NCBI GenBank assembly: GCA_947630745.1
Contig: CANRIT010000001.1
Location: 30,732-94,731 of the forward strand
Reading direction: 5' to 3'
Source: an uncultured Clostridia bacterium
GTDB lineage: Bacteria; Bacillota; Clostridia; Christensenellales; UBA1242
Length of the DNA stretch: 64,000 nucleotides
A program made the position numbers and the translations under genes. The notes under the pieces were generated by a model. That model was not told the DNA's origin. It did not search any database and saw only the letters and a program-made list of their open reading frames with translations. How positions within the stretch are numbered: position 1 is the stretch's first letter; each line of letters starts with the position of its first letter. Below, piece by piece: positions 6,068 to 62,747 of this stretch.

Positions 6068-6194
6068 AAACGCTCCACAACCACCCATTTCTGGGATATA
6101 TCCTTTATTATACTCGTATGAAAACAAAAGTCAAGGATATATCCCCGAGAATTTAAATGACACAATGATAAAATTCATATAAAGGATATATCGT

Positions 6195-28619: not shown

Positions 28620-31600
28620 CTATCTAATACGCATCTTGGTCCTTAACAAGATGATTGTAACCACAACAGCAATCACAATTATGCTAACCACCACAATTAC
28701 TATAATTGCCCATGTGTTAAGCGGTTGAGTGATTTTTACCCCGTAAGAAGAGATAATTCTGCCCGAACTAGTTTTTAACACGATATAGTAGTTGCCGTCA
28801 CTTTCTGTGCCAGCGCGTGCAATGCGCGAAGACGACATGCCGTGACCCGAACTGCTGGTTGCGTCAACTTTAAGCACAACTGCGTTGTCGTTGTTAATTC
28901 TATCTTTATAAACATAAATTGAACTGCTGCCAATCTGTTTATATATTTCGCCCAAATTGTAGCTTATTGTAAACCCTTTTGTGCTGCCCTCGCCCGCTTT
29001 AAGTGAGCAATCGATGTTAAGTTGAGGCTGGTTAAGCGAAAGGGTGAATGTTACCTGTCTTGCTGGGTAAATCCCCTCGTCAACAAGGTAGGTTATGTTA
29101 AATATCTGCCTATCTCTGCCATAAGGATTGGCGATGAAGAGTCGGCTTGCATATTCTGGCGACACCACTAAGTTATAATCAAGCACATAGTCGTTTTGTT
29201 TAAGCAACTCTTTAAACGCGGTGGTAAGCGCGCTTATGTCTTGCGCGGTCATATTGGTTTGATTTGTAACTTCAACAATCTGCTCGGTACGCTCTGCACC
29301 AAAACTGAATGCGGTGTACGCTTCGCTTGGCTCGACAATTGTAAATTCCAAGTTAGACACCAAACTATCCCCAGTTTGGCGTGGGCAAACAATTTGCACA
29401 CTGTACCATCCCGGTTGCGAGAAGCTGTAACTAAATCTGCGTGAAGACAAGTCGCTTATGGTCTGCTCAGCTGATGATGGGCTGTTGTAGCGATAGTTGT
29501 AAACAATATTGTTTCTGTCCGCGCCATATGCGGCAAGCGATTGAACAGCCACTGTCACTTCGCCATTATAGAACGCTTTGTTGATTGGCGCTTGACCATT
29601 TACAAGCACAGCAACTGCATTGTTTAAAATGGTAAGGCGAAGTTGTCTGGTTTCTATTTGATTGCCAACATTGCTTGTATCCCCGCTGAAACTGAACATA
29701 TTTGTGTTGCCTGCAAGGTCGGTAAATTGAATGGTATATTCGCCATTGCCTTTGATTGTAATTGCCGCCTTGCCGCTGTTTTCAAATTCAACAGCTTTGG
29801 TTGATACAAATTGATTGTAAAAGTACATGCTTACAAAATTGGTGTTTTTGTTTTTGATTTTTGCATTTGCGTTATACCCGCTGCCAACAAACGAAATTTC
29901 AAACTGCTCGCCTATCCATGTCTGTTGATGAATGTATGTTCCGCCATTAACCAAAATGTCGTTTCCAATAAAGTTGCTCATAACTGGCACAACAAGGGTG
30001 GCTGTGTAATATTCTTGCCCGTCCTTAACCAAACGATACAAGGTTAAAGTGTAATCGTCTTGGGTATCAGTGTAGTTGCCAAACGCGTCACTTTCGCCAT
30101 ATGGGTGAACGGTCATTTCGCGGTTGCTTATAAACAACTTGATGTTTTCATCATTATTTGGAAGATGCACATCTTCTTGTTGCGTTAAAACTTTACCACT
30201 AGATTCGTCCACGCCCAAATTTGAACTGGTAACAATTGCTTGAATAATAGTTTCCCTTGTTTTATTGCCAAAATTTGCATCGGTTAAAATTTCATTGATT
30301 GTAACAAGGCTGTTTGCTTCCATTTGCTCGCCGTCAATTTCAACAATAAATGGAGTGAACACGCTTGTGTCTTGTTGCAAAATAAAGGTGTAAACCACAT
30401 TGCCTAAACTGATTGCCTCGCCAGTTTGCGCATTTAAAATGCTTGCGGTTATAACAAACCTATAAATGCCCGTGTTGTCGCCAGTTGGAGCAAGGTGGAA
30501 GCGGTCGTTTTCCATTGAGATTTCGGTTAGCGCGCCGTTGTTTTCTTCCACAAACATTTGATATCTATACTGATAACTTACTTGCTCGCCCGACCTATCA
30601 ACTGGGCGGAAGAGTACAAATCTTTCCCCAACACCTATGCTTGCATAGTTGGTGCTTGAAATGTCGTCCACATTGCTGTCAAACGCCATAATGTTGCTAT
30701 CGTCACCCGCTGCGGTTAAGTTTTCCACATTCGCGGTGCGCGTGTCAATAATGATGTGATAAGTGTTTGGATTAGCCTCGTACTGCGAATCGTCAAGATA
30801 ACTAAGCGCGCAAATTATTTCAAGTTTTGCGCCCGCCTTGTTGGCAAAGAATGGATGAATATCAATTCTGCCGTCTGCAACATCGATTATGCGATAGTTT
30901 GCGCCTTGATAGTTGTAGTTTTCGTTTTCATAAATGGTTTTAAATTCGCCACCAAAAATGGCATATTGTATATCCACGCTGTAAAAGGTTGTGTTGTAGA
31001 ATATTGTTGTGTCGTTAAAGGTGTAATAAATGTCGCGCGCTTGGTCGTGATAACTTGCCCCTTCAAACGCAACTCGGTCAAATTCGGTGATTGAAGTGGT
31101 GTCAAACATATGCGCCAACTTGCTGCCAAATGTGGTTACCACAAGCAGATATGTACCATTTAAATTGCTAATTTTGTCAGTTGGCGCGGTTGCCATTCTG
31201 TCATCAAAAACGCCATCGTTGTTATCGTCAAACCATTCAAAGAACAAGTTTGGCTCGTGGAATTTAAACACGCGTGTTATGTTGTCATTGCCGCCTTTAA
31301 GCATAATTTCGCTGGCGTGATACATTACCCCGTCTGCTTGATTTATTGCCTTGGTTAAATCAACTTCGTTGTTAACAACCAAACTGGCTGGCAAAATTTT
31401 TAAATCCGTTGTGCTGTAAAAGTTTATGTAGAAAACTTTTGTAGCGCTGCGGGTAAATAAGGTTAATCTGTAATTGCCATAAACAAATCTGCCACCTTCG
31501 CTAAACAAATTAACAATTTGACTAGCCAATCCATTGTTGTTAAATTGGCTGCTTAAATTGGTGTTGATATAATTTGGCGATGTGCCTTGCGCGACATTTC

Positions 31601-34600
31601 CGTTTTGGTCAAGGCGTGCCAATTCAAACATGTAGAATCTATCAAACATAGAGATGTCGTTTTGATAGTTAAACGCGTTTTGGCTTGGCAATGTAATGCT
31701 TTCAAACACTTCAACCGACTGATTGTTTGTGTTGAAAGTGAAAGGCTGAGTTTGCTCTGACATGTTTTTAAGTTGCAAGGTTAAAGTTAAATTGTCGTAT
31801 TCTTGCCCATCATCGTAGAACACCACATACTGGGTAAGGTTGCCCGCCAAATCTTGTTCAACAATTTCGTAATACCCCGCATGCGTAAACAACTCACCAA
31901 ATGTAGTAGGAAGTTGCGTTACATGGCTGTATCCGCCAAAGTTTGCATACTCCAAACTGCCAAGCGTAATGCTGTTGCCATTGTTCCAATCTTTGATGTG
32001 TATGGTTGCAACATCTTCGGCTGAATATGGGGTGGTGTTGGTAACACTAAATGCATAGATGTTGTTTATCTGCCCCGCGCCATTATGCCAGCCAGTATAC
32101 ACTTTTATATGATTGCCACCAATTGTTGCATCTTCAAAAATTTGCTTGCTTGCTGGGTTTACTGCGTTTTGCAAAAGTCGGTCGTTATCTTGCAAATAGG
32201 TTATGTTGTTAGAAGGCGCTTGCCTATCCACAACAATGGTGTAAGTTTTTTCAAAATAATAAGTTGGGTCGGTTTTGCCCGGTTCAAAATAGTAATAGCA
32301 ATTTGCAAACGCCGCGCGGTTTGAGCCTATTGTGTCACTTTCCCACCTTAGCGTTATTGTGTAGGTGGTTGTTTGATTTAGTGCCGCGGTGTTGCTGATT
32401 GTAATCACCATATTTTCGCCGTCCGCCACGCTTGCAAACCTATCCCCACTTTGCGCGCCATATCTATAACTGAAACGATAGGTTTGTGGGTTTGCCACAT
32501 TTGGTTCGGAAATGGTTTGAATTATATCAAAATATGCTGGATCGGTCTGGGCAAGAATTTCGTCTGTGTTTTTATCAATTATGTTTGCTTTTGGAATGGT
32601 GATTGTTATTGTGTCTTTGTTGGTTGACCAACGCAAATCTTCAAAATTGGCATTTTGGGTGTAGTCGTCCGTGCTTGCAGTTATGCTTGCTTTTGCGCCC
32701 GACAAGGCGTTTGGCAAACCAATTCTAAACCCAAGCAGTTGCCTATTTAAACTTGCGCTTGATTTTATCGCATCGCTAATAACTACAACATAGTCGCCCG
32801 GCAATGTTAGCCAATCGTTCTGCCCGTCTGTGGTCATAAATCTGCTTATTAGCGTGTTGCCCAAAATGTCCGCTTGTTGCGACAGATTAATTTTAAAATA
32901 TCCGTTGCTTATATACGCGCTGTTTTGAGTGTTTTTGTTGTATTCAAACAATTTTATAGTCTTGTTGCTGTTTGCTGGCAACTGGCTGAACACATCGTTA
33001 AACCACACGCTTATGTAAAGCGAATTTGCCAAATAATCCGCATCCACACCTTGTTTGTAATATTTTTGAGTTGGCACATTTATTGTTGCTGGCAAGCGCA
33101 AGGTGTTGTCCGTGTTTAAATACACTGGATAGCGCAAATCTTCGTACTTCTGGTTAAGCCCTTCACCTTCGCGATAAGTGAATTGTTCGGTTTGGGCGGT
33201 GGTGGCAAAATTGTTGTATTTTACCTTGTTGTTAAACAATCCAAAATTTATGCCCACGCCAATGCCGTTTGACAAAATGCCGTTGCGGTCAATTATAAAA
33301 TAGTATTTAAGCACTTTGCTGTCAGTATTTGTGCCGTCTTTTTTGTATGTTCTGGTAACTTCATACAACCCGTCTACGCTGCTGCCCACACGATAGCCAA
33401 TAAGCACATATCCGCGCTGATTATCGTACTTGCCTGCATTTGTTGAGTATGTTCCGTCTTTGTAAACTTCAACAGATGTGCCAATTGTGTTGTAGAAATA
33501 TGTATTTTCTAAATCCACATTATCTTTATTTAAATCCAACTCATAACGCTGATAAGAAATCGATTCAACCTCGGTTTCGCTGCCCGTTGCGCCGTTGTTC
33601 CAAACAAAGTAGACATAGTTGTCTTTGGTTGCCTCAGCTGCGGTTATATCTTTGCCAGTAATAAGGCGGTTTGTCTGTTGCTTGTCCGCAAACAAATCGT
33701 TGTAACTAGAACTTTCACCTATTGTAAGTTGAGTGTTGAAATAGTACACTTCCCCGCGTGAATTATCGCGGTTAATTTCAAGCACCACATAACTGCTGCT
33801 AGATAGCGCACCAACATTTTTGTTGTTTTCGCCGAGCAAGTAGAACGAACGAATCATGCTGGTGGATTTTTCTTGCTCGCTATACGACATGGTTTTGCTT
33901 GTTGAATTGCTTTGTTCGCTGTAAGAATTGTTAAAATAGCTTTGGTCCATGTTAAGGCTGGTATCCATAACATTTGTAACATAATTGTACGCGGTTAGCG
34001 AATAGTTTTTAACTGCCAAATATCTTTCGTTTTGCGAATTGCCAAACAGACTGGTTAGCTTTTCTAAATTTGTGCTTGAATTAAAGTATTCACCGCTATA
34101 ACTTCCCGCCACCAACTGCCTAAATGCCAACTCTTCCCCGTTACCAGAAAGCGTGTTGTTAACAATTTTTATTGCCTTATGTGTGCCAGTGGTGATAGTG
34201 ATGTCCCCGCTGTATGTGTGCATTTCGCGCGTTAAGTAACTGCTTTCTTTCGCATTCACTTCTTGCACTTTAAAATATGCCTCGCTGTTATCTATAACAT
34301 ACATGTAGCGCGTGCTGTTGCCCGCTTGGTCGGTTATAACAAACAGATAGATGCCTTGTTTTTCCACCAACCTTAATCCGTCACTAAACACATGGTGTTC
34401 AATTTTGGACAAATCCGCTTGCATTTTGTTTGTTATCCAAAGTTGATTTATGCCTTGCGTGCCCAAAACTTGCATTTCTTTTATATCTTCTGCTGTTGTG
34501 GTAAATGGAACAAACAGATATTCTGCCGTCACGCTTGCCCCGCTTGGTTTTGCATCCCAGTCGATTGCAAAGCGTTGATTTGTTATTGCAAAACTGTTTA

Positions 34601-36911
34601 TGTCAAGCTTAACTTTGCTGCCGTTTAAATATCTATACTGATAAACTGGGCGATTAAATTGGTTGGTTGTAAGTTCGGTTTCGTACAGCGCAACATTGTT
34701 TATTGGGCTGCGGTCGATAGTGAAGGTGTATGGCTCGCTTGAAATGTATGGGCAATCCACCACCACTTTGTAGTGCATGTAGTCGTTTTGAACATCGTCA
34801 CCAAGTTCCGCGCCATTGGTTAATGGTTGGGCTGTGCCGTAGTTATAATCTTGGTCTGATGCTGGGTCATGCGAAGTGGCATAGGTAACCGACACTTCTT
34901 GTTCAAACACACCTGCCTCTTGCCAAGTTACTTTTACATTTTCCTTAGTGTAGCCGTCCGCCATTATGGTTTGTTCGCTGCCCACAGTGGTTATGTTTGC
35001 CTTGATTAGCGATTGGTTGTAGCGGTAAGCAAACATATAATATCTTCCGTTGTCTGCAACCGTTGCGCTGTTATTTTCCAAAACATTTAAAAACACTATG
35101 TAATAGCCTGGTGTGTTTAAGAATGTGGTTTCGTCATATCTAGTTTTTCCAGCAAGTGCGTTTTGTTCGCTGTTTAAATTGAGTTGTGCTTGTGTGTTGT
35201 CCACAAAAATTTCGCCAACAAAATTGCGGTCATCTGCGCGGAAGAAGAAACTTTTGTTAAAATTGATGCGATAGTCGGACAAAAATTGCACCGAACCCAA
35301 ATTTGTGGTTAAATGGTCGTAATCAATTGCGCCTATAAACTTTTTGATGTCTTCCACATTTGTTGTGTTGTTGCTTTGTGTGTCAAAAATTTTTGCCCAG
35401 TCATCAACCGATTTAGATTGGAAGGTCTGCCCCAAATTTGTATCAAAACTGCTTGTGGTAATTGTGTTGCCCACGCGCGTTTTTGCATCTTGCTCACCAA
35501 GGTCGGTTGAGTAGTGAATTTTGCCGTCTTCTGGTTGCGACTTGTTTGTGTAGCCAGATGGAACGATTAAATCCACCATGTTGCTGTTTGCCGCAAACTT
35601 TATGTATTTAAATTGCACATTTGCACCAAAGCGCGCGTACTGATTTTGCACGCCCACAATGTCAAGTTGAAAACCGTTTATTGTAAGGTTTTCCATTTGC
35701 GGTGCGTTGTTGCGATTGTAGCCAGTGTAAATGTAGGCAAATGAGAAGTTGTAACTACCATAATCGGTAAGCACAATTGTTGCCAAATGCTGGCTGTCTG
35801 TGTGCGCAAGAGCGAACGATTTGCTGGAAACCGCCGCGCCATTTGTGTCCGTTATATTTAAATCCAATGTTCGACTTGCCGCGTTGTAAGTGTAAGTGTA
35901 ATTTGATGTGCGCTCGTTGGCAAAATAGCGATAGCTAAGACTGTAACGCGTGTAGTCGTAGGTTATGGTTGGATAGTTTGCACCGCTACCTAAAATGTAA
36001 GTATATTGGTTGTTTTGTAAACTTAATGCGCCACCTTCGCCATTGTTACTACGCCCACAACTTAGGGTTGGTTTTGCTGTGTAAATATTTTTGTTTGACT
36101 CGTCATCGCCATATTCGGTGTAGGTTTTTGTGTACGAACTTTCGCGCACAAGATAAAAACTAAACCTTGCCCCGTCCCCACCATAGTCGGTGATGTTGCC
36201 GTACGAATAGTTTAATTGAATGGTGTAATAACCTTCTGGCGCATCCTTTGGCAGAACATAGGCAAAATCCCAATGTTCGCCATCATATTGTCTGGTGTAC
36301 CAATTATTAAACTCATCACTTTCTTTTGTAACCGTTTCACCATTGATTGTTATAACTGAGTCGGTAACAAGCCCAATGCCCACACCAGTGTTGGACTCCT
36401 GTTCGTTGTAATCTTTGTTAAGCGCAGTTTTAACTTCGCCACTTTCAAAATAATATTGCCCAAACGAAATAACAATTGTTTCGTCCAATTTTTTTGTTTC
36501 GCCTGATGATTGAACTTGCTGCCCGCTGTCGTTGTTAAGCATAACAAATTCGTTATCCCTAACCGCGTATCTAATGTTGCTACCATTTCCCGGGATTGAT
36601 TTGTAATAAATCTGCTTATCGTCTTCTTCTTCATATCCGCCGCCCGCCAAAACAGACGCTTCATCAAAAGGTTGAGTTTTTTTGCCGTCCTCATCCCACA
36701 GCACGCCCACCTTTTCTATATTAAAAACAAGCCCGTTGTTATCCACACCAGTAAAGCCGTTTGTTTCGTCCCTATTAAAGCCGGGGTTGGTAACCGCGTT
36801 TGCGCTTGGTTGCCTAATAAAATTTATGCAAAACGCAGACATAACAACTGCAAAACACAATGCAATTGCACCCCATAAAATTTTTAAATTTATTTTATGT
36901 TTAGTTTTCAT
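28620..36911 (-). CDS. giant (2,763-aa) surface protein with an N-terminal signal/anchor and a C-terminal TM anchor; many divergent Ig-like beta-sandwich modules
   Basis: ORF trimmed to the ATG after AAGGGG (MKTKHKINLKILWGAIALCFAVVMSAF...). C-terminus WAIIVIVVVSIIVIAVVVTIILLRTKMRIR. Recurring module ends of the form G.Y.[IFV].[IV].D.AGN (GIYLFVITDQAGNS, GYYEIVEQDLAGNL, GEYTIQFTDLAGNT). Rich in N, T, Y and S. No LPXTG. Confidence 0.8.
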   Translation of the reverse strand: MKTKHKINLKILWGAIALCFAVVMSAFCINFIRQPSANAVTNPGFNRDETNGFTGVDNNGLVFNIEKVGVLWDEDGKKTQPFDEASVLAGGGYEEEDDKQIYYKSIPGNGSNIRYAVRDNEFVMLNNDSGQQVQSSGETKKLDETIVISFGQYYFESGEVKTALNKDYNEQESNTGVGIGLVTDSVITINGETVTKESDEFNNWYTRQYDGEHWDFAYVLPKDAPEGYYTIQLNYSYGNITDYGGDGARFSFYLVRESSYTKTYTEYGDDESNKNIYTAKPTLSCGRSNNGEGGALSLQNNQYTYILGSGANYPTITYDYTRYSLSYRYFANERTSNYTYTYNAASRTLDLNITDTNGAAVSSKSFALAHTDSQHLATIVLTDYGSYNFSFAYIYTGYNRNNAPQMENLTINGFQLDIVGVQNQYARFGANVQFKYIKFAANSNMVDLIVPSGYTNKSQPEDGKIHYSTDLGEQDAKTRVGNTITTSSFDTNLGQTFQSKSVDDWAKIFDTQSNNTTNVEDIKKFIGAIDYDHLTTNLGSVQFLSDYRINFNKSFFFRADDRNFVGEIFVDNTQAQLNLNSEQNALAGKTRYDETTFLNTPGYYIVFLNVLENNSATVADNGRYYMFAYRYNQSLIKANITTVGSEQTIMADGYTKENVKVTWQEAGVFEQEVSVTYATSHDPASDQDYNYGTAQPLTNGAELGDDVQNDYMHYKVVVDCPYISSEPYTFTIDRSPINNVALYETELTTNQFNRPVYQYRYLNGSKVKLDINSFAITNQRFAIDWDAKPSGASVTAEYLFVPFTTTAEDIKEMQVLGTQGINQLWITNKMQADLSKIEHHVFSDGLRLVEKQGIYLFVITDQAGNSTRYMYVIDNSEAYFKVQEVNAKESSYLTREMHTYSGDITITTGTHKAIKIVNNTLSGNGEELAFRQLVAGSYSGEYFNSSTNLEKLTSLFGNSQNERYLAVKNYSLTAYNYVTNVMDTSLNMDQSYFNNSYSEQSNSTSKTMSYSEQEKSTSMIRSFYLLGENNKNVGALSSSSYVVLEINRDNSRGEVYYFNTQLTIGESSSYNDLFADKQQTNRLITGKDITAAEATKDNYVYFVWNNGATGSETEVESISYQRYELDLNKDNVDLENTYFYNTIGTSVEVYKDGTYSTNAGKYDNQRGYVLIGYRVGSSVDGLYEVTRTYKKDGTNTDSKVLKYYFIIDRNGILSNGIGVGINFGLFNNKVKYNNFATTAQTEQFTYREGEGLNQKYEDLRYPVYLNTDNTLRLPATINVPTQKYYKQGVDADYLANSLYISVWFNDVFSQLPANSNKTIKLFEYNKNTQNSAYISNGYFKINLSQQADILGNTLISRFMTTDGQNDWLTLPGDYVVVISDAIKSSASLNRQLLGFRIGLPNALSGAKASITASTDDYTQNANFEDLRWSTNKDTITITIPKANIIDKNTDEILAQTDPAYFDIIQTISEPNVANPQTYRFSYRYGAQSGDRFASVADGENMVITISNTAALNQTTTYTITLRWESDTIGSNRAAFANCYYYFEPGKTDPTYYFEKTYTIVVDRQAPSNNITYLQDNDRLLQNAVNPASKQIFEDATIGGNHIKVYTGWHNGAGQINNIYAFSVTNTTPYSAEDVATIHIKDWNNGNSITLGSLEYANFGGYSHVTQLPTTFGELFTHAGYYEIVEQDLAGNLTQYVVFYDDGQEYDNLTLTLQLKNMSEQTQPFTFNTNNQSVEVFESITLPSQNAFNYQNDISMFDRFYMFELARLDQNGNVAQGTSPNYINTNLSSQFNNNGLASQIVNLFSEGGRFVYGNYRLTLFTRSATKVFYINFYSTTDLKILPASLVVNNEVDLTKAINQADGVMYHASEIMLKGGNDNITRVFKFHEPNLFFEWFDDNNDGVFDDRMATAPTDKISNLNGTYLLVVTTFGSKLAHMFDTTSITEFDRVAFEGASYHDQARDIYYTFNDTTIFYNTTFYSVDIQYAIFGGEFKTIYENENYNYQGANYRIIDVADGRIDIHPFFANKAGAKLEIICALSYLDDSQYEANPNTYHIIIDTRTANVENLTAAGDDSNIMAFDSNVDDISSTNYASIGVGERFVLFRPVDRSGEQVSYQYRYQMFVEENNGALTEISMENDRFHLAPTGDNTGIYRFVITASILNAQTGEAISLGNVVYTFILQQDTSVFTPFIVEIDGEQMEANSLVTINEILTDANFGNKTRETIIQAIVTSSNLGVDESSGKVLTQQEDVHLPNNDENIKLFISNREMTVHPYGESDAFGNYTDTQDDYTLTLYRLVKDGQEYYTATLVVPVMSNFIGNDILVNGGTYIHQQTWIGEQFEISFVGSGYNANAKIKNKNTNFVSMYFYNQFVSTKAVEFENSGKAAITIKGNGEYTIQFTDLAGNTNMFSFSGDTSNVGNQIETRQLRLTILNNAVAVLVNGQAPINKAFYNGEVTVAVQSLAAYGADRNNIVYNYRYNSPSSAEQTISDLSSRRFSYSFSQPGWYSVQIVCPRQTGDSLVSNLEFTIVEPSEAYTAFSFGAERTEQIVEVTNQTNMTAQDISALTTAFKELLKQNDYVLDYNLVVSPEYASRLFIANPYGRDRQIFNITYLVDEGIYPARQVTFTLSLNQPQLNIDCSLKAGEGSTKGFTISYNLGEIYKQIGSSSIYVYKDRINNDNAVVLKVDATSSSGHGMSSSRIARAGTESDGNYYIVLKTSSGRIISSYGVKITQPLNTWAIIVIVVVSIIVIAVVVTIILLRTKMRIR

Positions 36912-37277
36912 TTTACCCCTTAATTTATTTTCCCAAATAAAGCGCAAATTATTTATTTATAAATAATTTTGTGGAATTATAGGGAATTATTTAATTTAAT
37001 TATATCACATCAAAAATAAATATCCAAATGAAATAAATAATTTTAAAAAAATTATAATAAAAATATTTTTATTATTTTTACGCCTTTTATTTCCCAAATT
37101 TTCTGGCTGCGTTTGTTGATTTAATATATATAAAAAAGTTAAATATAAAGGTTAAAATTTAAAATTTTTTATAATTTTTTTCATTTTTGCACATTTTTTA
37201 ATGATTTTTATTGATTTTTTAAGGGATTTTTAAGAATTTTTTATTTTTTAATATTTTTTATCAACAATTTAAAGCAT

Positions 37278-37300: not shown

Positions 37301-38716
37301 CTAAATTAATTTATTCACCCCTTTTATGCTTACAAGTTTCATGGTCTTGGCAATCTGGTTTGAGTTGGCGTCAATGTAGTAGAAATACATGCCGTCAATT
37401 CGGTCAAGCATAAATTCGTAGGCAGAAATCTCTTTGCCGCTATCTAGGCGGATAACTGTTTTGCTGGTCTTTAAAATCTCGTAGTCAAAGCCAAGCAATT
37501 TTTCCGCATCTTCAACTGGCACATTGAATTCCGGCTCGCGTTCAACATGGTTAAGGGCATAGTTAACCGCTTCCAAGCCAATAATGTCTTGCGCGGTTAA
37601 ATCCACCTTAACTTTCACAAGGTCGGGGTAGTAAATAACATCATTTTTAACTGGTGCAAGGTTGACATACGCTACATTTTCGTGCACTTCAAGCCAAACG
37701 GGTTGCATGCTGTCAAAGCCGATGTTGTTGGCATAAGTTTTTGCCATTTCGCTTGCTTGTTCGCTTTTCATAATCGGGTCGCCCGACACCGCATATCCAG
37801 ACAAGGTTATAAGCAGCCCGCCACGCTTGCTAACTTGTGCGGTAAACCTTTTTTCTGTGGTGGAAATGGTGAAGTCGTAGGTCGCGATGTCGCCGCCCGT
37901 TTCCTTTTCAAATTCTATTTTTACTTTGCGATTTTTAAACACTTTGTCGGACAAATACTTTGCCGCATCATCTTTTGAAATCTCGTTTTCAGGCAGTCCT
38001 TTAACTTGCTTGGTTTCTAGCGCGGTGGAAAAAGGTCCATCAAAAATCATGGCGGGATATTCTATGTTTGCACTGGTCATATCTCCCATGCTTGCAGAAA
38101 GTTCGTTCATGCCAGTTTTATCAAAAATGCCCGCATCAACAAAGTTAAAATTTGTGTCGTACATGCCATAGTTTTGCGTGTTTAAATTCGCCTTAATTCT
38201 TCCCACAACAAGCGCGATTTTGTCAAACAAAAGCTCTTGCTCTTGCGTCAAATTTTCACCCTTGTAAAGCGCCGCGCTGTACGCCTCACACACGCCATTC
38301 ACTTGATTAAAAAATTTAGTGGCAGCCACCACATTTTCTTGGTTTATTGGCAGCACACTAAGCCCGCCCAAAATGTAGTTGCAATCCACCATCATGTCTT
38401 GCATAGTGTTTAACTTGGCTTGCGTGGTGCTAAGGTTTGGATACTTTGCCAAATCCACCGCCAAGTTGTTGACATTATCCACCATTGAATAATAACTTGA
38501 AGTGTAAACACCTTCCAAAATGTTGGCATTTTGCTTGTTTGATTTGTTAACTTGATAATACGCAACCAAAACACAGCCCAAAATTACCACCAACGATACA
38601 ATTGCCACAATCAAAATTGGCACCGCCTTTTGCGCATTGGTTTTCTTTTTGGTGTCTTTTTGCTGATTTACATTGCTTTTACTTTCCATGTTTTCCGAAA
38701 CAATTTTCTGCTTCAT
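37301..38716 (-). CDS. ypeB: germination protein YpeB (PepSY-domain partner of SleB)
   Basis: 471 aa with an N-terminal TM helix. Length and architecture match YpeB, and it lies downstream of sleB. GGGGGAAAGG RBS. Confidence 0.75.
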   Translation of the reverse strand: MKQKIVSENMESKSNVNQQKDTKKKTNAQKAVPILIVAIVSLVVILGCVLVAYYQVNKSNKQNANILEGVYTSSYYSMVDNVNNLAVDLAKYPNLSTTQAKLNTMQDMMVDCNYILGGLSVLPINQENVVAATKFFNQVNGVCEAYSAALYKGENLTQEQELLFDKIALVVGRIKANLNTQNYGMYDTNFNFVDAGIFDKTGMNELSASMGDMTSANIEYPAMIFDGPFSTALETKQVKGLPENEISKDDAAKYLSDKVFKNRKVKIEFEKETGGDIATYDFTISTTEKRFTAQVSKRGGLLITLSGYAVSGDPIMKSEQASEMAKTYANNIGFDSMQPVWLEVHENVAYVNLAPVKNDVIYYPDLVKVKVDLTAQDIIGLEAVNYALNHVEREPEFNVPVEDAEKLLGFDYEILKTSKTVIRLDSGKEISAYEFMLDRIDGMYFYYIDANSNQIAKTMKLVSIKGVNKLI

Positions 38717-39105
38717 CCTTTCCCCCTTTAACTAATATTATTTTTTATAATTTTGTTAAATTTATTTACATTTTTTAATATTTTTTGCATTTTTTATTAA
38801 TTTTTATAAAATTTTCCTTAATTTTTTAATAATTTTTATTTTTTATCAACTTTTATTGGTCTTAATATTTTTTAAATTCAAATTAAATTTTAAAAAATCC
38901 TATTTTTAAGTATTTTTAAACTTTTAAATAATTTTAATTTACTAATTACTTATCAAACAATTTTTGATTTTTTATAAAAATTATTAATTTTTTTATTAAT
39001 TTTCATATATTTTTGATAATTTAATAACTATTTTATAATTTTTTTCACATTTTCACGATTTTCAACCTTTCTTTATAGGCCCAAAATACTCCACCCCAAA
39101 AACCT

Positions 39106-39649
39106 GGAGCGGCATTTGATTAAAGTACGTTAGCTTTTGGGATGCAATGGATTGCGGGTGAACGACTTTCCTCTTAATCTTTCTAGTTCGACCCTTACCC
39201 TAGGAGCGGCATTTGATTAAAGTATGTTAGCAATTGAGGATAAAAGTGTTATGCACGAACGACTTTTAATTTATCCTTATGAGACTTACTCGCCTTACCC
39301 CAGAGCCTGGAGCGGCATTTGATTGGGTTATTGTGCCTTTGTGCGTTGGGTGTTGTACACTCACGACTTTGCTTTTAAATTGTCCTTATAAGACCCGATT
39401 ATTTTACCCGCACCACTGGAGCGGCCTTTGATTAAAGTATGTTAGCTTTTGGGATGCAATGGATTGCGGGTGAACGACTTTCCTCTTAAATCTTTCTCGT
39501 TCAACCCTTACCCCAGGAGCGGCATTTGATTAAAGTATGTTAGCTTTTGAGGATAAAAGTGTTATGCGTGAACGACTTTGCCGTAGGCACCTTAGTGAGC
39601 GCATAATACTTTTGTCCTCACCCGTAACTAATTTAACTAACAAGCGACT
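39106..39649 (+). repeat. array of five head-to-tail modular structured repeat units (97-134 nt) between sleB and ypeB
   Basis: Units start at 39106, 39203, 39309, 39418 and 39516. Each begins GGAGCGGCATTTGATT(AAAGTATGTTAGC) and carries (GA)ACGACTTT. The variable arms are of three types. The last unit has a 22-bp stem and the tail CCCGTAACTAATTTAACTAACAAGCGA ending at the sleB stop codon. Confidence 0.9.
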
Positions 39650-40351
39650 TTAAACAGCGAACACATGATTCCCAATTGTCGTCACATATTTAGTTGTGCG
39701 AATCCAACTGCTTGTTGCGGTTTTTGGATTGTAATAGTAAACCGAGCCATAAGTTGGGTCCCAACCATTAAGCGCATCGTCCGCCGCTTGATATGCGGTT
39801 GGATTTGGCTCTAAGTTTATTTGCCCGTCATTAACCGCAGTAAACGCCCATGGCTGATAAACCACGCCAGCCACCGTGTTAGGAAATCTGCTGTCCCGCA
39901 CGCGATTAAGCACCACCGCGCCAATTGCCACCTGCCCGGTATAGCTTTCGCCACGCGCCTCGGCGTAAATAACTTTTGCCAGCAAATATCTGTCGTTGCT
40001 GTTGTAGGTTGAACTGCTTGTCGCTTTTGACACGCTCAGCCCCATTTTTGCTGCAGTAAGTGGCCCAACAATTCCGTCCGCAGTCAATCCATATTTGCGC
40101 TGAAAAGCCTTTACCGCAGCAATGGTTTTTGGTCCATTAATTCCGTCCACGCTGCCCGTGTAATATCCCCATTTTTTAAGCCGCGTTTGAACATCTTTTG
40201 TGTTCGCCACCGCCGCGTCTACAATTTCAGTTGACACCGCCTTCGCCTCGGCCACCCGTGATTTTTTACTGTTTTTAACAAGCGCCCCGCCAGCGAATAT
40301 GCCCGCAACTGCAAAAACCACAAGCATGCAAAATATAAAAATCTTTTTCAC
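39650..40351 (-). CDS. sleB: spore cortex-lytic enzyme SleB (PG_binding_1 + Hydrolase_2)
   Basis: GTG start after GGAGG (VKKIFIFCML...). PG-binding repeat (LKKWGYYTGSVDGINGPKTIAAVKAFQRKYGLTADGIVG). SleB catalytic domain (AKVIYAEARGESYTGQVAIGAVVLNRV...FPNTVAGVVYQPWAF). Confidence 0.9.
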   Translation of the reverse strand: MKKIFIFCMLVVFAVAGIFAGGALVKNSKKSRVAEAKAVSTEIVDAAVANTKDVQTRLKKWGYYTGSVDGINGPKTIAAVKAFQRKYGLTADGIVGPLTAAKMGLSVSKATSSSTYNSNDRYLLAKVIYAEARGESYTGQVAIGAVVLNRVRDSRFPNTVAGVVYQPWAFTAVNDGQINLEPNPTAYQAADDALNGWDPTYGSVYYYNPKTATSSWIRTTKYVTTIGNHVFAV

Positions 40352-40576
40352 TTTTTCCTCCGTTTCCCCTATTTTGCAACCCGCCCGCAAAATTATGCAA
40401 AAATTTCCAAATTTTTAAAAAATAACGGTTTAATTTATAGAAAAATGTTCATAAAGTTTTTATGCGAATATGAAAAAGAAAAAGCACAAGCATGTTTTGT
40501 TACAACAAGACTTGCGCTAGTATATTTATTTACTTAAAAATTTTGAGATTTGGCATTTTAAATTCATCAAAAAGTT

Positions 40577-41098
40577 TTAATTAAAAATCTTTTTAAACCA
40601 CTCGGCGATTTTGGATTTGAATGTGATGGATGTGCTGCCATTGTTTTCGCCCACAAAGCAAAGCGGCGGATACATAACGCACCACCAGTTGTCGCCCGAT
40701 GCGCTACCAAGTTCAACAATCACCGCATCATAATAACCAGATTCAAGCGTAGTGTTGTTGTAAGTGCGGGTGGGGAAATATTCGTTGTTAATTTTTACAT
40801 GCACGTTATAGTTAAAGCCGTTTTTGCTAAGCGTTTTTTGGCAAAGGCTTTCAAGCGCTGACATATTTTTTTCAACAATTTTTATTGCGTCCGCCTTGGT
40901 TGGAACATTGCAAAGTTTTGGGGTTAAGAATTTTACCACTTCGTCCTTAACCAGATATTTAACATTTTGGTCAACCGCCAAATTGCTGTTGGCGCGGATA
41001 TGTATGCGCAAATAGTCGTAATCCTTTTCTTTTGGCAAAAACACCGCCACCACCCCAACAACAATCATCAATAAAACTGCAAACACAAATTTTTTCAT
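40577..41098 (-). CDS. spoIIR: stage II sporulation protein R
   Basis: 173 aa. Signal/TM, LRIHIRANSN and the hallmark DNWWCVMYPPLCF. Confidence 0.9.
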   Translation of the reverse strand: MKKFVFAVLLMIVVGVVAVFLPKEKDYDYLRIHIRANSNLAVDQNVKYLVKDEVVKFLTPKLCNVPTKADAIKIVEKNMSALESLCQKTLSKNGFNYNVHVKINNEYFPTRTYNNTTLESGYYDAVIVELGSASGDNWWCVMYPPLCFVGENNGSTSITFKSKIAEWFKKIFN

Positions 41099-47375: not shown

Positions 47376-47846
47376 AATAGAATATCAAAAAATCAATTTT
47401 TATATAATTATTTTTGGTTTTTTAAAATTTGATATATTTTAAACCTTTAATTTACAAAATTTTAAACTTAAAAATAGAAAAACAAATATATTTATTTAAA
47501 TTTTAAATAATTTGTCAACATAATGTTTTTTATTTTTATAATATTAATATAATCAAATATAACTATAATTAAGGAAGTTTTTAAAACGAAAATTAAAAGT
47601 CACTCAAATAAAAGAAAATTAAAATAATTTATTTAAATTAAACTTAAAAATAATTAAATTTTTCGCAAAAATTTCAAAAATAATAAAAATAGTTACAAAT
47701 TTTTATATTTTTTTAAATATTTTTTGATATTTTTTAAAATTATTCATATTTTTAATATTTAAATAATATATAACTATATAAGTTTTTTATTTTTTGGCAT
47801 ATTTTAATTTTTGTTGTTATACATTATGTAAGACGGAGGAGTTTTT

Positions 47847-53756: not shown

Positions 53757-54479
53757 CTATTTTTTAAAGATTGGTTTAACCACTACATGGCGTTTTTCAC
53801 CTTCGCCTGTGCTTTCCGTTGTAACATCATCCCTGCCTTGAAGTGTGGTGTGGATAATTCTGCGGTCGTACGCGCTCATTGGGTCAAGGTGAATGTTGTG
53901 CCCAATGTTGATTGCTTGCTCAGCCGTTTTGTTTGCCAAATCAACAAGCGATTGCCCGCGACTTGCCTTATAGCCGTCAATATCAAGATAGATGCGGATT
54001 GCACCTTCGTTTTTGCGCTTTAACCCAGACAACAAAAACTGTATCGCCTTTAAGTTGTCGCCATGAAAACCAATAAACTTGCCCAAATTTTCACCTTTAA
54101 CTGCAAAGGATAATTCGTTTTCACCCTCGCTGCATTCAATAGTGGCATTTGGGTCAACAAAATGCACCAACCCAGTTAAAAATTGGCTGCACGCTTCTTT
54201 TAAACGCGAACTATCCACCACGCGTTTTGGTTTTGGTTGGGCGGTTTCAACCACTTCTTCCGCTTGTTCAACTTGTTCTTGTTGGCTTACGGGTTCTGCT
54301 GCAACTTCTTCTTGCTTGGTCTCAGTTTGCTCGCCCCAACTAAGCTGAACTTTTGCCTTTTTAAAAAGTCCGCCTTGTTCAAGCACTTTAACTTCCACTT
54401 GGTCGCGAGTTAACCCGCACTCTAAAAGCCCATTTTGAATTGCTATTTCAACATTTTTTCCAGTTGCTGTAATTTGCAT
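53757..54479 (-). CDS. jag: Jag/KhpB RNA-binding protein (Jag_N-KH-R3H)
   Basis: 240 aa. R3H end (DPMSAYDRRIIHTTLQ). Lies downstream of yidC. Confidence 0.9.
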   Translation of the reverse strand: MQITATGKNVEIAIQNGLLECGLTRDQVEVKVLEQGGLFKKAKVQLSWGEQTETKQEEVAAEPVSQQEQVEQAEEVVETAQPKPKRVVDSSRLKEACSQFLTGLVHFVDPNATIECSEGENELSFAVKGENLGKFIGFHGDNLKAIQFLLSGLKRKNEGAIRIYLDIDGYKASRGQSLVDLANKTAEQAINIGHNIHLDPMSAYDRRIIHTTLQGRDDVTTESTGEGEKRHVVVKPIFKK

Positions 54480-54503
54480 ATTTCCTCCTAAATAAAGTGC
54501 AAT

Positions 54504-55559
54504 TTACTTTTTGCCTTTTTTGTTTTGTGCGTTGTAATTTCTGCTGTATTCAACCACTGGCACTTTTGGTTTGATAAGTTCTTCCAACGATTTTTTGCTG
54601 TTTATTTTGCGCATTATAAGCGAAATTATTGTTGAGATAATTGCCGACATAATGCTGTTGGTTAAGATGTACAAAGTAAACACCACGTTGGATGTCCATG
54701 CAAACAAAATCATGGAAAGTGGCAAAACTATCATCATAATTATGTTCATCATGCTAAGTTTTTGCCCTTTTGGTGCAAGCAGTTTCATGGATAAGAATTG
54801 TGTTAAAAAGTTTACAATTGCGCAAAGGAAAATCAGCACAAAATAACCATTGTTGTCCTTGCCTTCACCCACAATTGATGAGGTGATAGCATTGTATCTT
54901 TCCCGCGCTTGCTCACGCTGCTCGCCCGACAAATTTTGCTGATTGGCAAAGCTGTCAAACGATATAAATTGGCTTACATTTCTGTCCGCTTTCCAAACGT
55001 TTTTAACCCAAAGCCAACTGTTGCGCTTTTCAAGCTGCTGATACTTTTCTTTTGCCATGTCAATTGCATAACTTTTTGCATCGGCATACACATCCACGCT
55101 TATAACATCTTCATCAAGTTTTTGCTGATACTCGCTTTCCGCGGTGACATATGCGCTATCGATTTGACTGTAACTTTCATATAACTTGCTTGTGCCGTAA
55201 CTGCGTATGCTGCCATACAAGGTGAAGAACACCACTGCTGTAACAACAAACGACAACAACATAGTCAAGCAAATTCCACCCATGCCAGTGTTGTATTTTT
55301 TATAGATTTTTTGAGTTTCTGCATTTATGCGCTCTTTATTGTCGCCATACTTCTTTTTTATGGCATCCAATTCAGGCTGCATGTATGCGGTGACGCGCGA
55401 CTGCTTTTGGGTTGCCACACGCTGCATGATGTCAAGTGGAGTAAGCACAAGTTTAAGCACCACGGTAAACACCACAATTGCCCAACCATAGTTTACAATC
55501 CATTTGGCAAACAAGTCAATGATGTGTGTCCAAAGGTCGGCTAATAACATTCCATTCAT
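54504..55559 (-). CDS. yidC: membrane protein insertase YidC/SpoIIIJ
   Basis: 351 aa, five TM helices, basic C-tail. Conserved position after rnpA-yidD. Confidence 0.9.
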   Translation of the reverse strand: MNGMLLADLWTHIIDLFAKWIVNYGWAIVVFTVVLKLVLTPLDIMQRVATQKQSRVTAYMQPELDAIKKKYGDNKERINAETQKIYKKYNTGMGGICLTMLLSFVVTAVVFFTLYGSIRSYGTSKLYESYSQIDSAYVTAESEYQQKLDEDVISVDVYADAKSYAIDMAKEKYQQLEKRNSWLWVKNVWKADRNVSQFISFDSFANQQNLSGEQREQARERYNAITSSIVGEGKDNNGYFVLIFLCAIVNFLTQFLSMKLLAPKGQKLSMMNIIMMIVLPLSMILFAWTSNVVFTLYILTNSIMSAIISTIISLIMRKINSKKSLEELIKPKVPVVEYSRNYNAQNKKGKK

Positions 55560-55574
55560 AATAAATCCTTTTAG

Positions 55575-55844
55575 TTAACATTTCCACTTAAAATCGCCAC
55601 AAAGGTTTGGCGGAACAAAGTCGTATTCGCCCTTAATTTTATGGCAACGCAAAATCCGCCTTGCTGCCAAAATTCCGCCCAAAATTGCGCCATACTGCTT
55701 AACTGCATAAAGCCCAAAACTGCTGCAAGTTGGCATGCTGTTGCACCATCGCCCAAGCTTGCTTATTGTAAGTTTGTATAGCCAAATAAGCCCAATGCAA
55801 ACAAGCGTAAGCGGATAGGTTAAAATGTAATAAATTTTAAACAT
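55575..55844 (-). CDS. yidD: membrane protein insertion efficiency factor YidD
   Basis: MPTCSSFGLYAVKQYG ... RRILRCH matches the YidD C..PTCS.Y pattern. Overlaps the end of rnpA. Confidence 0.85.
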   Translation of the reverse strand: MFKIYYILTYPLTLVCIGLIWLYKLTISKLGRWCNSMPTCSSFGLYAVKQYGAILGGILAARRILRCHKIKGEYDFVPPNLCGDFKWKC

Positions 55845-56277
55845 TATCGCCCTCGTTTTTGTTTTGGCTGTTTTGGTTGGCGTTTTTTATGCTGTTGTCT
55901 TTTGCCTTAAAAACCTTGTGTACAATTTGCGCGCTTTGCTCTTCCCTATAGAGATGATTTTTTTTAAGCAAAAACATAAGTTCGCTTTCAATATCTTGCA
56001 TCTTTTTATCTTTGGCGGAAGGCTTTGCGGTTATAACATAATTTTTAACTGCAAACTTGTTTATGTTAAGGCGGCAGGCTTCACTTATTATGCGCTTAAC
56101 ACGGCTGCGCACCACGCTGTTGCCCACCTGTTTTGACACCGCCACCCCAATTTGTGCGTATGGGCGGGTTGGCTTGACATAATGAACAAAAAGGTCGGGT
56201 GCGTGCGCGATTGTACCTTTGCGATAAATAAAATTAAACTCTTTGCGCTTTTTTAAGCGATTTTGTTTTTTTAGCAT
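55837..56277 (-). CDS. rnpA: ribonuclease P protein component
   Basis: LKKRKEFNFIYRKG ... VGNSVVRSRVKRIISE. Extended C-terminal tail. Confidence 0.9.
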   Translation of the reverse strand: MLKKQNRLKKRKEFNFIYRKGTIAHAPDLFVHYVKPTRPYAQIGVAVSKQVGNSVVRSRVKRIISEACRLNINKFAVKNYVITAKPSAKDKKMQDIESELMFLLKKNHLYREEQSAQIVHKVFKAKDNSIKNANQNSQNKNEGDNV

Positions 56278-56283
56278 AATCCC

Positions 56284-56418
56284 CTACACTGTCAATTGTT
56301 TTTTGCCTTTGTTTCTGCGCCTTTTTAAAACTTTTCTGCCAGATAAAGTTTTCATCCTAGCCCTAAAACCATGCACTTTGTTGCGCTGTTTCTTTTTAGG
56401 TTGATAAGTTCTTTTCAT
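56284..56418 (-). CDS. rpmH: 50S ribosomal protein L34
   Basis: Absent from the ORF track (44 aa). The reverse complement translates to [53 protein letters not shown]. Confidence 0.95.
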
Positions 56419-56819
56419 AAAAACCTCCTTTTGTTTTTGCCAATTGCGGCTTAAAAATAGATTTGGAATTTAAAATTAAAAACCAAACAAAATATATCAA
56501 ACGATATATTATATTGATAGGCACTATAAAATAAAAATTTTATTATTTGACGGGTGGTGCATAACGCACAATAACAGAAAATCTGTTGGGAAAAAGCAAA
56601 TATGTACCCACTTACCCTTGCGGATAAAACAATACATTATAATTGTAACAAAATTTTGTTTGTTTGTCAACCTTAATTTGTTAAATTGTAAATATTTTAT
56701 TTTGCGCGCTTGATATTTACGGATTTTTGTTGCAAATTTATTAAAATTTGACATTTTTGTTAAATTAGTTGCATTTTTTTTGATTTTTTAATATAATTTG
56801 ATTGTTTAAAGGAGAATTT

Positions 56820-57071
56820 ATGATTCAGTATAGATACGACACCCAACTTTTAATTGAGGGTAAAAATTTGGATGAAGATGTCATCCACGACTATTTTATG
56901 AAAAATTTTAAAGGCGACTGCCTTATTGCCGTTGGCGACCCAGAACTTATTAAAATCCACTTCCACACAAATGAGCCATGGGATGTTTTAAAATACTGCT
57001 CCACCCTTGGCGAAATCTACGACATTGTTGTTGAAGATATGGATAGACAGTCGAGAGGGTTAAAAGGTTAA
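56820..57071 (+). CDS. stand-alone fragment-sized homologue of the YloV (DAK2-fusion) Dak1_2 domain
   Basis: 83 aa after AAAGGAGA. YRYDTQLLIEG...GDCLIAVGDPELIKIHFHTNEPWDVLKYCSTLGEIYDIVVEDMDRQ matches the GDSlvvvgd..kvHvHTn.P..vl...G.l..i.i.NM..Q core of ~550-aa YloV proteins. Confidence 0.5.
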   Translation: MIQYRYDTQLLIEGKNLDEDVIHDYFMKNFKGDCLIAVGDPELIKIHFHTNEPWDVLKYCSTLGEIYDIVVEDMDRQSRGLKG

Positions 57072-57248
57072 CAATCGCTTGTTAGTTAAATTAGTTACGG
57101 GTGGGCTGCAATGGGTTGTGGGTTCACCTAAGTGCTTCGCAAAGTCGTTCACCCGCAATCCATTGCATCCCAAAAGCTAACATACTTTAATCAAAGGCCG
57201 CTCTAGGGTCTAGGGCAAGGCAAGCGGGTTATAAAAGGATAAATTAAA
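57072..57248 (-). repeat. second locus of the modular structured repeat (terminal module with alpha arms plus a partial upstream unit), inverted relative to the 39-kb array
   Basis: The reverse complement contains GAGCGGCCTTTGATTAAAGTATGTTAGCTTTTGGGATGCAATGGATTGCGGGTGAACGACTTTGC...ACCCACAACCCATTGCAGCCCACCCGTAACTAATTTAACTAACAAGCGA. It starts 1 nt after the TAA stop at 57069-57071. Confidence 0.85.
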
Positions 57249-57336
57249 AAATTTACTAATATTAAACAACTTTCTGGTTTGGAAGTTGTTTTTGTTGGTA
57301 AAATTTTGTAATAGTTCTTATCTTTAGGAGGTTGTA

Positions 57337-59165: not shown

Positions 59166-59807
59166 TTTTCCTCCTTTTAATATGATATTATAAGTTTAAG
59201 AAAATTAGAATTTTATGTCAAATATAATTTTTAAATTTTTTATTTTTTTAAAAAATTTTGTCAAAACATGAACAAATAATAGACAGGTGTTGATTATTTT
59301 ACTTTTTAATATTCCAAATCTAAATTATGAACTATCAAAACCGCCCCTAACCTAACCAAATCAGATATCTATTTTCACTATTTATCTTTCGTAAGGAAAG
59401 AAATTTTAAAACCGCATTTATGCGATCAACTTCAAACAATAACATTTATAAATAACAATTTATACATTATGATTAGTTTTAATTTTAAACATTCCATTTA
59501 ACTGGCCTATATATATAAATATTTACTTAAATATTATATATAACTATATAGGTAAGGTTTTAATTTTATAAACAAAAAACCTGTGTTTATGTAAAAGGGC
59601 GTAATCTTTAAAATTCTTCCACAATTTCAATTTGTTTCTGTATTTAACATTTGTTAATAAGATAGTTTAAATTAATTTATAACTAGATGTAACTACTCGT
59701 CAGATTTTAATAACCTATAAAAACTCTAATTTTTTATCGCGCTTTTGGGGTTGTTTGGTTGATTAAAAATTTAAAATTTGATATTATGGTCGTGTTAGGG
59801 GTAAATT

Positions 59808-60503: not shown

Positions 60504-60700
60504 AAATTTTAAATATAAATCCTAAAAATATCAAAAAAAATAACAAAACAATGTATTTATAAAGGCAGTATAAAATATTTATAAATTAAATTATTAATAA
60601 CTTAATTTAATAAACTATACAGAAAATAAATTATAAAAATCAAAAATATATAATTTAAATCAAAAAGCAAAAAACATTTAAAAATTAAAAATAAAAAAAG

Positions 60701-61112: not shown

Positions 61113-61214
61113 ACAAACCTCTAATTATATTTTATCACAAATTTAAATTTTTTGCAAATTTTTAATTATTGAATAATTTTGTGCTTGTTTTGGAAACATT
61201 TTTGTGGGGAAAAT

Positions 61215-62738: not shown

Positions 62739-62747
62739 TGGAAAAGT

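Follow-up and report, generated by a model that had tools for sequence, protein, structure and literature searches.

A probable new family of mosaic palindromic repeats placed directly behind stop codons in uncultured rabbit-gut Clostridia

The gap between sleB and ypeB in the stretch of DNA analysed here (64,000 nt, hereafter the window) holds five head-to-tail units at 39106-39649, and one further copy lies in the window at 57073-57204. We think that these units probably belong to a new, lineage-restricted family of mosaic palindromic repeats of uncultured rabbit-gut Clostridia, which would be co-transcribed as post-stop hairpins. The intact unit is a non-coding, long imperfect hairpin of ~133 nt whose two arms change together. 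We place it among the small palindromic intergenic repeats because it occurs at several loci, its copies are nearly identical within a genome, its ends are species-specific, relatives differ in its presence and in unit number, its arrays are decaying mosaics, and its host genes are unrelated. Like MITEs, the units are short, non-coding, multi-copy and insertion-polymorphic between relatives. An earlier reading made from the sequence alone (the sequence-only reading) had proposed a modular, multi-locus repeat family resembling mosaic elements of the BOX type, and our results agree with this description.

The positions of the sleB and ypeB ORFs put the array immediately 3' of sleB, on the minus strand. 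In the direction of transcription, the region has the following features.

40577-41098, minus strand: spoIIR
39650-40351, minus strand: sleB, the upstream host gene; 233 aa from a GTG start, Pfam Hydrolase_2 and PG_binding_1
39516-39649, minus strand: unit 5, the only full-length intact hairpin of the array, with beta arms; 134.2 bits with covariance model R1, RNA fold z -3.45; its left end begins at the final base of the sleB stop codon
39418-39515, minus strand: unit 4, short; tail, loop box, alpha 3' arm and right end, without the 5' arm
39309-39417, minus strand: unit 3, gamma; related through GGCACAATAACCCAATCAAA to the 'A-type' units of Lapin-017
39203-39308, minus strand: unit 2, short, with the beta 3' arm; 93% identity to unit 5 over its 3' 75 nt
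39106-39202, minus strand: unit 1, a short alpha unit, duplicate of unit 4
39091-39112, minus strand: hairpin resembling a terminator, from a consensus scan; it has a weak T run and lies where the array ends on the ypeB side
38717-39090, no strand: spacer of extreme AT content that separates the array from the start of ypeB
37301-38716, minus strand: ypeB, the downstream gene; Pfam YPEB_N and YPEB_PepSY1-2

The number of terminator-like hits in the consensus scan, the one at 39091-39112 included, is not above the shuffle expectation. The spacer carries A/T tracts with a period of ~10-11 nt and is missing where sleB and ypeB form a tight operon. The C-terminus of SleB is unaltered by the insertion. 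The open frame of sleB as such extends over 39650-40390 (minus strand).

The motifs listed in the sequence-only reading were found again. The head GGAGCGGCATTTGATT is common to all units on the plus strand (39106, 39203, 39309, 39418 with one mismatch, and 39516), and a sixth head lies inverted, on the minus strand, at 57189-57204; none of 100 shuffles reached the count of 7 matches. Four of the five units continue with AAAGTATGTTAGC, as had been noted, and so does the 57-kb copy, and the ACGACTTT box is seen in all units. The tail CCCGTAACTAATTTAACTAACAAGCGA occurs exactly twice in the window, at 39621-39647 (plus) and 57075-57101 (minus). Units 1 and 4, described as nearly the same, are 94.9% identical, and the beta stem of unit 5 was recovered as reported, with 22 bp on the plus strand, a 29-nt loop, and G·T as the only non-Watson-Crick pairs. 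A covariance model run with filters off over the 64 kb returned nothing beyond the known copies, in line with the statement that the window holds a single copy outside the array. The array is reported by a repeat finder and is missed by TRF, because its units differ by indels. It is real and not an assembly artefact, since an independent metagenome assembly (L025, ENA ERZ27249610) carries an identical 933-nt gap. Over 2370 nt this assembly is 99.87% identical to the window without gaps, its 3 mismatches all fall within ypeB, and the SleB that it encodes is identical to that of the window.

The description of the array as five structured repeats has to be revised. Unit 5 alone is an intact hairpin. 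The 5' arm is missing from units 1, 2 and 4, which comprise a tail, the loop box, the 3' arm and the right end, and whose fold z-scores (+0.40, +0.21 and -0.97, respectively) are no better than those of shuffles. In unit 3 only the antisense strand has a notable fold (z -2.5). Units 5-4 and units 2-1 are related by a segmental duplication of 164 nt, with 94% identity at an offset of 313 nt. A more accurate picture of the array is a single intact element with four remnants or duplicates behind it. The ORF listing gives no ORFs between the units. An antisense small ORF at 39279-39431 (plus) was considered and dropped, as it is not conserved and the alpha- and beta-type units carry in-frame stops.

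The copy at 57 kb is the only other unit of the window with both arms, and is accompanied by a tail and a terminator-like hairpin.

57073-57204, plus strand: second intact hairpin, with alpha arms; 136.7 bits with model R1, fold z -5.0
57205-57250, plus strand: tail module (…AGGGCAAGGCAAGCGGGTTATAAAAGGATAAATT) of this copy, read directly from the sequences
57264-57291, plus strand: hairpin with a T run, resembling an intrinsic terminator, downstream of the element

The element begins 1-3 nt past the TAA of a plus-strand gene of 83-89 aa (Pfam FakA-like_M), and the hairpin at 57264-57291 puts it between the stop codon and what would be the gene's own terminator. The alpha-complementary distal partner reported here was recovered. 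The copy is 98.5% identical to unit 4 over 66 nt, and its tail module is similar to the 5' part of unit 2 and to tails of copies in related genomes (L001, L014 and L017, see below). The array behind sleB, read on the minus strand, has the same orientation relative to its host gene. The genes rpmH-rnpA-yidD-yidC-jag lie at 53.7-56.4 kb, the cumulative GC skew has its minimum at 56-57 kb, and DnaA-box-like 9-mers switch strand near this minimum, and the window spans the origin region. Both loci of the window are therefore co-oriented with replication and transcription alike.

Three related genomes provide 9 intact hairpins, 8 of them distinct. In sense order, an intact unit shows a left end, a 5' arm, an apical region, a 3' arm, AAAAGCTAACATACTTTAATCAAA and a tail GCCGCTCC…. 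The left end is conserved ((A)AGCG/TCGCTTGTTAGTT…, with TCGCTTGTTAGTTAAATTAGTTACGGGTG as the sense reading), as is the right end (…GCTAAC…AATCAAA), after which a tail of conserved sequence follows. The apical loop is also conserved (…TAAGTGCTTCGCAAAG…) and forms a mini-hairpin, …TAAGTGC-YWC-GCAA(A)G…, which can also be read as TAAG(G)TGC-triloop-GCAAAGTCGTTCAC. The sequence-only reading had seen no terminal inverted repeats; as the whole unit is a palindrome, it does have such repeats, in imperfect form, at its ends. AAGCGTTGGCTAGTTGGG pairs with the reverse complement of CCCAATCAAACTGCACTT, the ends of the window copies do likewise, and this pairing is the outer helix of the consensus structure. 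The tails of Lapin type gave zero consensus pairs when 9 of them were submitted to RNAalifold as a candidate structured RNA, even though their sequence is conserved.

We then aligned six intact copies with alpha, beta, delta and A-type arms (130-136 nt, 73% column identity, few gaps and none longer than 4 nt). The RNAalifold consensus is one helix of 36 pairs, 20 of which have changed on both sides. Paired cells make up 88.9% of the total, against 34-42% in controls with slid partners, which show 1-7 pairs with two-sided changes. None of 500 shuffles reached the observed covariation score. The pairing constraint is real, as is the reported exchange of arm sequence with preservation of the stem. 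The arm types, which had been called unrelated, align position for position, are of equal length and share 9-12 of 21 positions (43-57% identity); from this alignment they look like diverged homologues rather than unrelated cassettes. Mismatches on the consensus pairs are balanced between G·U (12) and A·C (9), in a small sample of 6-7 copies. Since the two kinds are equally frequent, the palindrome is strand-symmetric and carries no RNA-strand signal: the tolerance of G·U and avoidance of A·C on one strand that marks a structured RNA was not seen among these 6-7 copies. The more stable fold belongs to the antisense strand in 5 of 7 copies and to the sense strand in 1 of 7. Between the 57-kb copy and that of L001, which are close orthologues, there are one-sided transitions and no compensated pairs.

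Related loci were reached via the closest YpeB homologues, and the junction between sleB and ypeB differs strongly among them (percentages are for YpeB).

L001, Logan ERR14656748: 91%; gap of 564 nt with one intact alpha-arm unit directly after the TAA of sleB
L002, GCA_947632645.1 ('uncultured Clostridia bacterium Lapin-017__bin20'): 87%; gap of 1218 nt with three diverged units
L018: 76%; gap of 10 nt, element absent
L004: 75%; gap of 10 nt, element absent

The variation in unit number that the sequence-only reading had proposed to look for is thus present at sleB, with 0 units (L004 and L018), 1 (L001), 3 (L002) and 5 (window). A tight spoIIR-sleB-ypeB operon is the ancestral arrangement, and both the element and an AT-rich spacer of 340-640 nt were inserted in a lineage-specific way. 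A 20-mer from the units of L002 matched only 3 loci in the Lapin-017 genome and led to two more arrays there, behind floA (L014) and behind acpS (L017). In the sample of L001, a homologue of FloA (L026) is followed, directly past its TAG stop, by an intact beta-arm unit and then by a gamma half-unit; model R1, built without this copy, finds it behind floA with 110 bits (E 1.8e-22). The contig of L026 ends inside a unit. The arrays of the window, L002, L014, L017 and L026 share one layout, hairpin, tail, half-unit, tail and so on, in which the first unit is always intact and the later ones mostly lack the 5' arm. The left and right ends are species-specific, even at the shared loci sleB and floA, and copies at different loci of one genome have identical ends, with 100% identity between the two loci of the window. 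The host genes (sleB, fakA_M-like, floA and acpS) are unrelated housekeeping genes without a functional theme.

Some observations count against a family of mobile repeats. Neither the 64-kb window nor the DNA flanking the related loci contains a transposase, a RAYT, a Y1/HUH gene or any other candidate for mobilising the repeats. The flanks showed no consistent target-site duplication, and none could be defined, as there was no empty site close enough for comparison at the level of the base. At the fakA_M site of L002 the element is absent, in a strongly diverged site that carries a different insert, and the window has no orthologues of the Lapin host genes that could serve as empty sites. The copy number also looks low, at 2 loci per 64 kb in the window. 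Finally, the occupation of the same loci in different species fits old, vertically inherited elements kept for a function. Locations of BIMEs can be common to related species with sequences that stay species-specific.

The sequence-only reading had proposed to check whether copies always follow stop codons, and they do so at all loci seen: at 7 of 7 loci the element is in sense orientation, and no more than ±1 nt separates its left end from a TAA or TAG, as shown here with a bar at the left end.

Window, sleB: TA|AAGTCGC
Window, fakA_M: TAAC|AATCGC
L001: TAAG|AAGCACC
L002, L014 and L017: TAA|AAGCGTT
L026: TAG|AAGCACC

The stop is either TAA or TAG, and no upstream motif is common to these sites. 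The base of the hairpin begins ~13 nt after the stop codon. This ±1-nt registration, at 4 genes in 3 genomes, is tighter than target preference combined with purifying selection would obviously predict. Compact 3' regions restrict the permissible sites of insertion. Many REPs, too, are found no more than 15 nt from a stop codon and influence translation, and REPs so placed are reported to stall ribosomes (PMC12306157, citing its ref. 17). It has been proposed that stable structure immediately behind a stop codon, termed 'ribosome termination structure' (RTS), insulates translation (PMC7518266).

In the reading that we favour, a family of palindromic repeats, the array has lodged exactly behind the stop codon of sleB and, together with the AT-rich spacer, has split the ancestrally tight spoIIR-sleB-ypeB operon. 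Units occur singly or as mosaic arrays, in which later units have mostly lost the 5' arm and segmental duplication adds units. They may spread and persist as DNA, through transposition or re-insertion at favoured sites behind stop codons, through gene conversion that uses the conserved ends of the copies, or through both. The hairpin might be kept through recognition of its ends and apical loop by some protein or process. Copies should be co-transcribed, since each one is oriented in sense, follows a stop codon and precedes the next RBS or terminator. The most likely effect on the host would be protection of the 3' end of the upstream mRNA by a strong post-stop hairpin, and the hairpin may also, or instead, insulate or stall the termination of translation, in a way comparable to REPs near stops or to RTS.

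The sequence-only reading had left open whether the units are structured RNAs or a DNA-level module, and the computable evidence leans towards DNA, through the balance of G·U and A·C, the species-specific ends at shared loci, and host genes without a functional theme. An explanation at the RNA level is nevertheless the most serious alternative, although we consider it rather unlikely. The unit would be a cis-acting element selected as RNA, either a post-stop insulator or ribosome-stalling structure, a stabiliser of mRNA 3' ends, or a processing site of the RNase III type, which uncouples sleB from ypeB and floA from its neighbour, and whose copies spread by duplication and were kept for their function. 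Such an element would always be in sense and would abut the stop codon, as the first units do; the base of its helix, ~13 nt past the stop, lies where the footprint of the terminating ribosome ends; and the strong covariation, the conserved apical loop and the occupation of the same loci in different species are what one would expect of it. Functional structures after stop codons also have published precedents (PMC7518266; PMC12306157). However, the mismatches are balanced between the strands, the antisense strand folds better in most copies, which is the opposite of what a sense RNA predicts, and the changes between the 57-kb copy and that of L001 are one-sided and uncompensated. Moreover, the arrays consist mostly of half-units that are unable to form the hairpin, the hosts have no common functional theme, and relatives manage with a sleB-ypeB junction of 10 nt.

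A further reading is a portable, stop-anchored hairpin, a module capable of moving or of gene conversion whose insertion, or whose retention alone, is confined to sense copies exactly at the 3' edge of a TAA or TAG, where it would act as a transferable termination or insulator structure that breaks translational coupling and splits operons such as spoIIR-sleB-ypeB, with an apical loop recognised by a protein. We offer this conjecture tentatively, and think it unlikely.

Another possibility is that the hairpins serve an enzyme acting on single-stranded DNA, a Y1 transposase of the IS200/IS605 type or a protein like RAYT, which mobilises them as folded ssDNA at the replication fork in the manner of REPINs or PATEs. 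This would explain the strict orientation, which could be set by the fork, given that both loci of the window are co-oriented with replication and transcription around the GC-skew minimum. It would also agree with a structure that is kept with free arm sequence and conserved short end and loop motifs, and with a left end that follows a T-rich …TAA or …TAG; IS605 inserts 3' of TTTAA(C). We regard it as quite unlikely, however. Y1 and HUH genes are missing from the window and the related flanks, the ends of IS200/IS605 are two separate subterminal hairpins rather than a single palindrome spanning the element, and REPs are only 20-40 nt long. Furthermore, the strand that is due to fold, the lagging-strand template, corresponds to the sense strand, which is the less stable in 5 of 7 copies, and the Rfam families of IS605-associated RNAs gave no match. 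We also considered DnaA boxes in the arms, with TTATCCTCA in the beta arm and TGTATCCACA in A-type arms. Such 9-mers are enriched throughout the window (65 against 18 expected), and the idea was rejected because this enrichment is an origin-proximal, strand-skewed background.

The conserved motifs at the hairpin base and loop, the variable arms in a preserved structure, the location immediately after ORFs and the fixed orientation also recall the attC recombination sites of integrons, or scars of repeated integration at the 3' ends of genes, and the left end GTTAG/GTTAC and right end GCTAAC resemble attC core sites. The order of the core motifs is inverted, however, with GTTA…TAAC here and RYYYAAC…GTTRRRY in attC, there are no cassette ORFs between the units and no integrase in the window, and the hosts are core housekeeping genes at conserved positions, so that this reading, which we hold to be very improbable, is already largely refuted. 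Equally hard to credit is a set of tandem small-RNA genes, sense or antisense, akin to the multicopy sRNA clusters, an option raised by the sequence-only reading: the units are tandem and ~100 nt long and the antisense strand of several intact copies is the more stable, but they are contiguous, without a promoter-like AT-rich spacer or a terminator of their own, the short units have fold z-scores of ~0, Rfam has no match, and the same module lies behind unrelated genes. A repeat RNA resembling those of type III toxin-antitoxin systems was rejected too, as no toxin gene lies next to the array and the units lack individual promoters and terminators.

The family is previously undescribed, and the Rfam search proposed by the sequence-only reading gave no hit to any RNA family, ribozymes, group II intron domains and CRISPR repeats included: the best matches over 38600-39800 have E-values of 4.8-9.9, far below the threshold in significance, and over the window only two tRNAs reach the gathering threshold. 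A pattern search of genome contigs with ends of the window type gave no match; the GTDB representatives do not include the source species. Exact look-ups of YpeB and of the FloA cluster representative returned no record. A 20-mer scan of JGI metagenomes returned chance matches only, none of which extends, and nothing was found in a viral scan of IMG/VR or in blastn searches against phages and plasmids.

In its features, the family resembles the enterobacterial REP/BIME and ERIC elements or the pneumococcal BOX. Like REPs and BIMEs, it is extragenic and predicted to be transcribed with the upstream gene, and its palindromic units and conserved linker or tail motifs form mosaic arrays with a variable number of units. 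It differs from them in size, with a hairpin of ~133 nt and 36 consensus pairs where REPs have 20-40 nt, in the lack of a head of the GTAG type (GTAG/CGTC tetranucleotide), in its seemingly low copy number, in the lack of a RAYT in the window and related flanks, and in its host, a lineage of Clostridia. Moreover, blastn against 5,426 genomes of E. coli gave no sequence similarity. ERIC, or IRU (~127 bp, in Enterobacteriaceae and Vibrio), has a similar size, is an imperfect palindrome over its entire length and thus has long imperfect TIRs, lies in transcribed intergenic regions and inside operons, and yields variants by internal deletions and insertions. In contrast to our element, it occurs in both orientations, is not anchored to stops and forms no tandem arrays of half-units, and the two have no sequence homology. 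A 10-nt string, CCCCAGGAGC, matches the ERIC core as given by the ERIC primers. Homology to ERIC was rejected, since this match is found at one unit junction only and the blastn search against E. coli was empty.

BOX elements (boxA-boxB(n)-boxC) are also found in Firmicutes, and are modular, non-coding and intergenic, with a variable number of internal modules and a predicted stable secondary structure. Their modules and sequences are different, however, what they repeat is the internal boxB and not a 3' half-unit with its tail, and they are not anchored to a stop codon. The RTS is defined thermodynamically, as a generic property of single genes, and is not a family of repeated sequences (PMC7518266), and the likeness to it that we suggest is by analogy.

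Two features of the family are unusual: a hairpin of ~133 nt whose arms have diverged to ~50% identity yet are complementary, and a first unit registered to ±1 nt with the upstream stop at every locus seen. If this registration reflects a mechanism and not just selection, it bears on the origin of post-stop structures and on the splitting of operons. REP/BIME, ERIC, BOX and Correia repeats are well studied in Proteobacteria and streptococci. To our knowledge, small palindromic intergenic repeats are essentially uncharted in uncultured gut Clostridia. In practice, such arrays break metagenome assemblies, as in the truncated floA contig of L026, and they could serve as strain markers.

The window includes the replication-origin-proximal region (53757-56800), in which rpmH-rnpA-yidD-yidC-jag are found; in the gene neighbourhood within the window, dnaA is absent beside rpmH. 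The cumulative GC-skew minimum of the window falls at 56-57 kb. DnaA-box-like 9-mers (TTATCCACA, at most one mismatch) occur 65 times in the window versus 18 expected, mostly on the + strand to the left of about 56 kb and on the - strand in all five cases to its right. The origin region of this spore-former is adjoined by LigD-type NHEJ genes, and two further ORFs were noted:

56802-57071, + strand, small FakA-like_M gene (83-89 aa, stand-alone FakA-like middle domain only)
61179-63626, + strand, genes for LigD-type NHEJ (one protein combining phosphoesterase and ATP-dependent ligase; one primase-polymerase protein)
28620-36947, - strand, 2775-aa ORF directly downstream of ypeB

The FakA-like_M ORF is a genuine small gene rather than a piece of a pseudogene, and the middle-domain protein is very widespread (7940 database proteins at E ≤ 1e-15, mostly of 83 aa). 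At the fakA_M site of GCA_947632645.1 (L002, 4290-4500, - strand), the final ~35 nt of this gene are duplicated, with synonymous differences between the copies. Between the two 3'-end copies sits an insert of ~170 nt with a hairpin of its own (GGGGCACCC…GGAGTGCCC), which appears to be a 3'-end insertion of another type, at the position occupied in the window by the alpha element, a hairpin repeat with one of the arm types. The 2775-aa ORF is kept in relatives at 2703-2861 aa and has no recorded Pfam domain.

GCA_947632645.1 also carries nine repeats of what we call the Lapin-type tail module, CAAACTGCACTT-N5-CTCCTCGYAAG…GTTTCARG…TTTGAAAGT, at three loci:

L002 (sleB), 8734-9110
L014 (floA), 2540-2930
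L017 (acpS), 5899-6160

The anti-Shine-Dalgarno-like CTCCTCG is invariant in this module. One of the nine has no hairpin before it, and no consensus secondary structure was found among them.

Many genes in the window are preceded by extremely AT-rich spacers, whose A/T tracts recur with a period of ~10-11 nt (also 21-22), which suggests intrinsically curved DNA. Such spacers lie at:

Window, 3804-3916, 6523-6604, 37035-37261, 38736-39064, 47616-47773, 59225-59550 and 60524-60699
L002, 9100-9740

The spacer before ypeB is missing from the relatives that keep a tight 10-nt sleB-ypeB junction. The contig of a related assembly (L020, 1-98) terminates within the AT-rich spacer that immediately precedes ypeB, and another contig (L026, 6173-6249) within a half-unit, a copy of the hairpin repeat without its 5' arm, behind floA. 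Short-read metagenome assemblies appear to be broken by these repeats.
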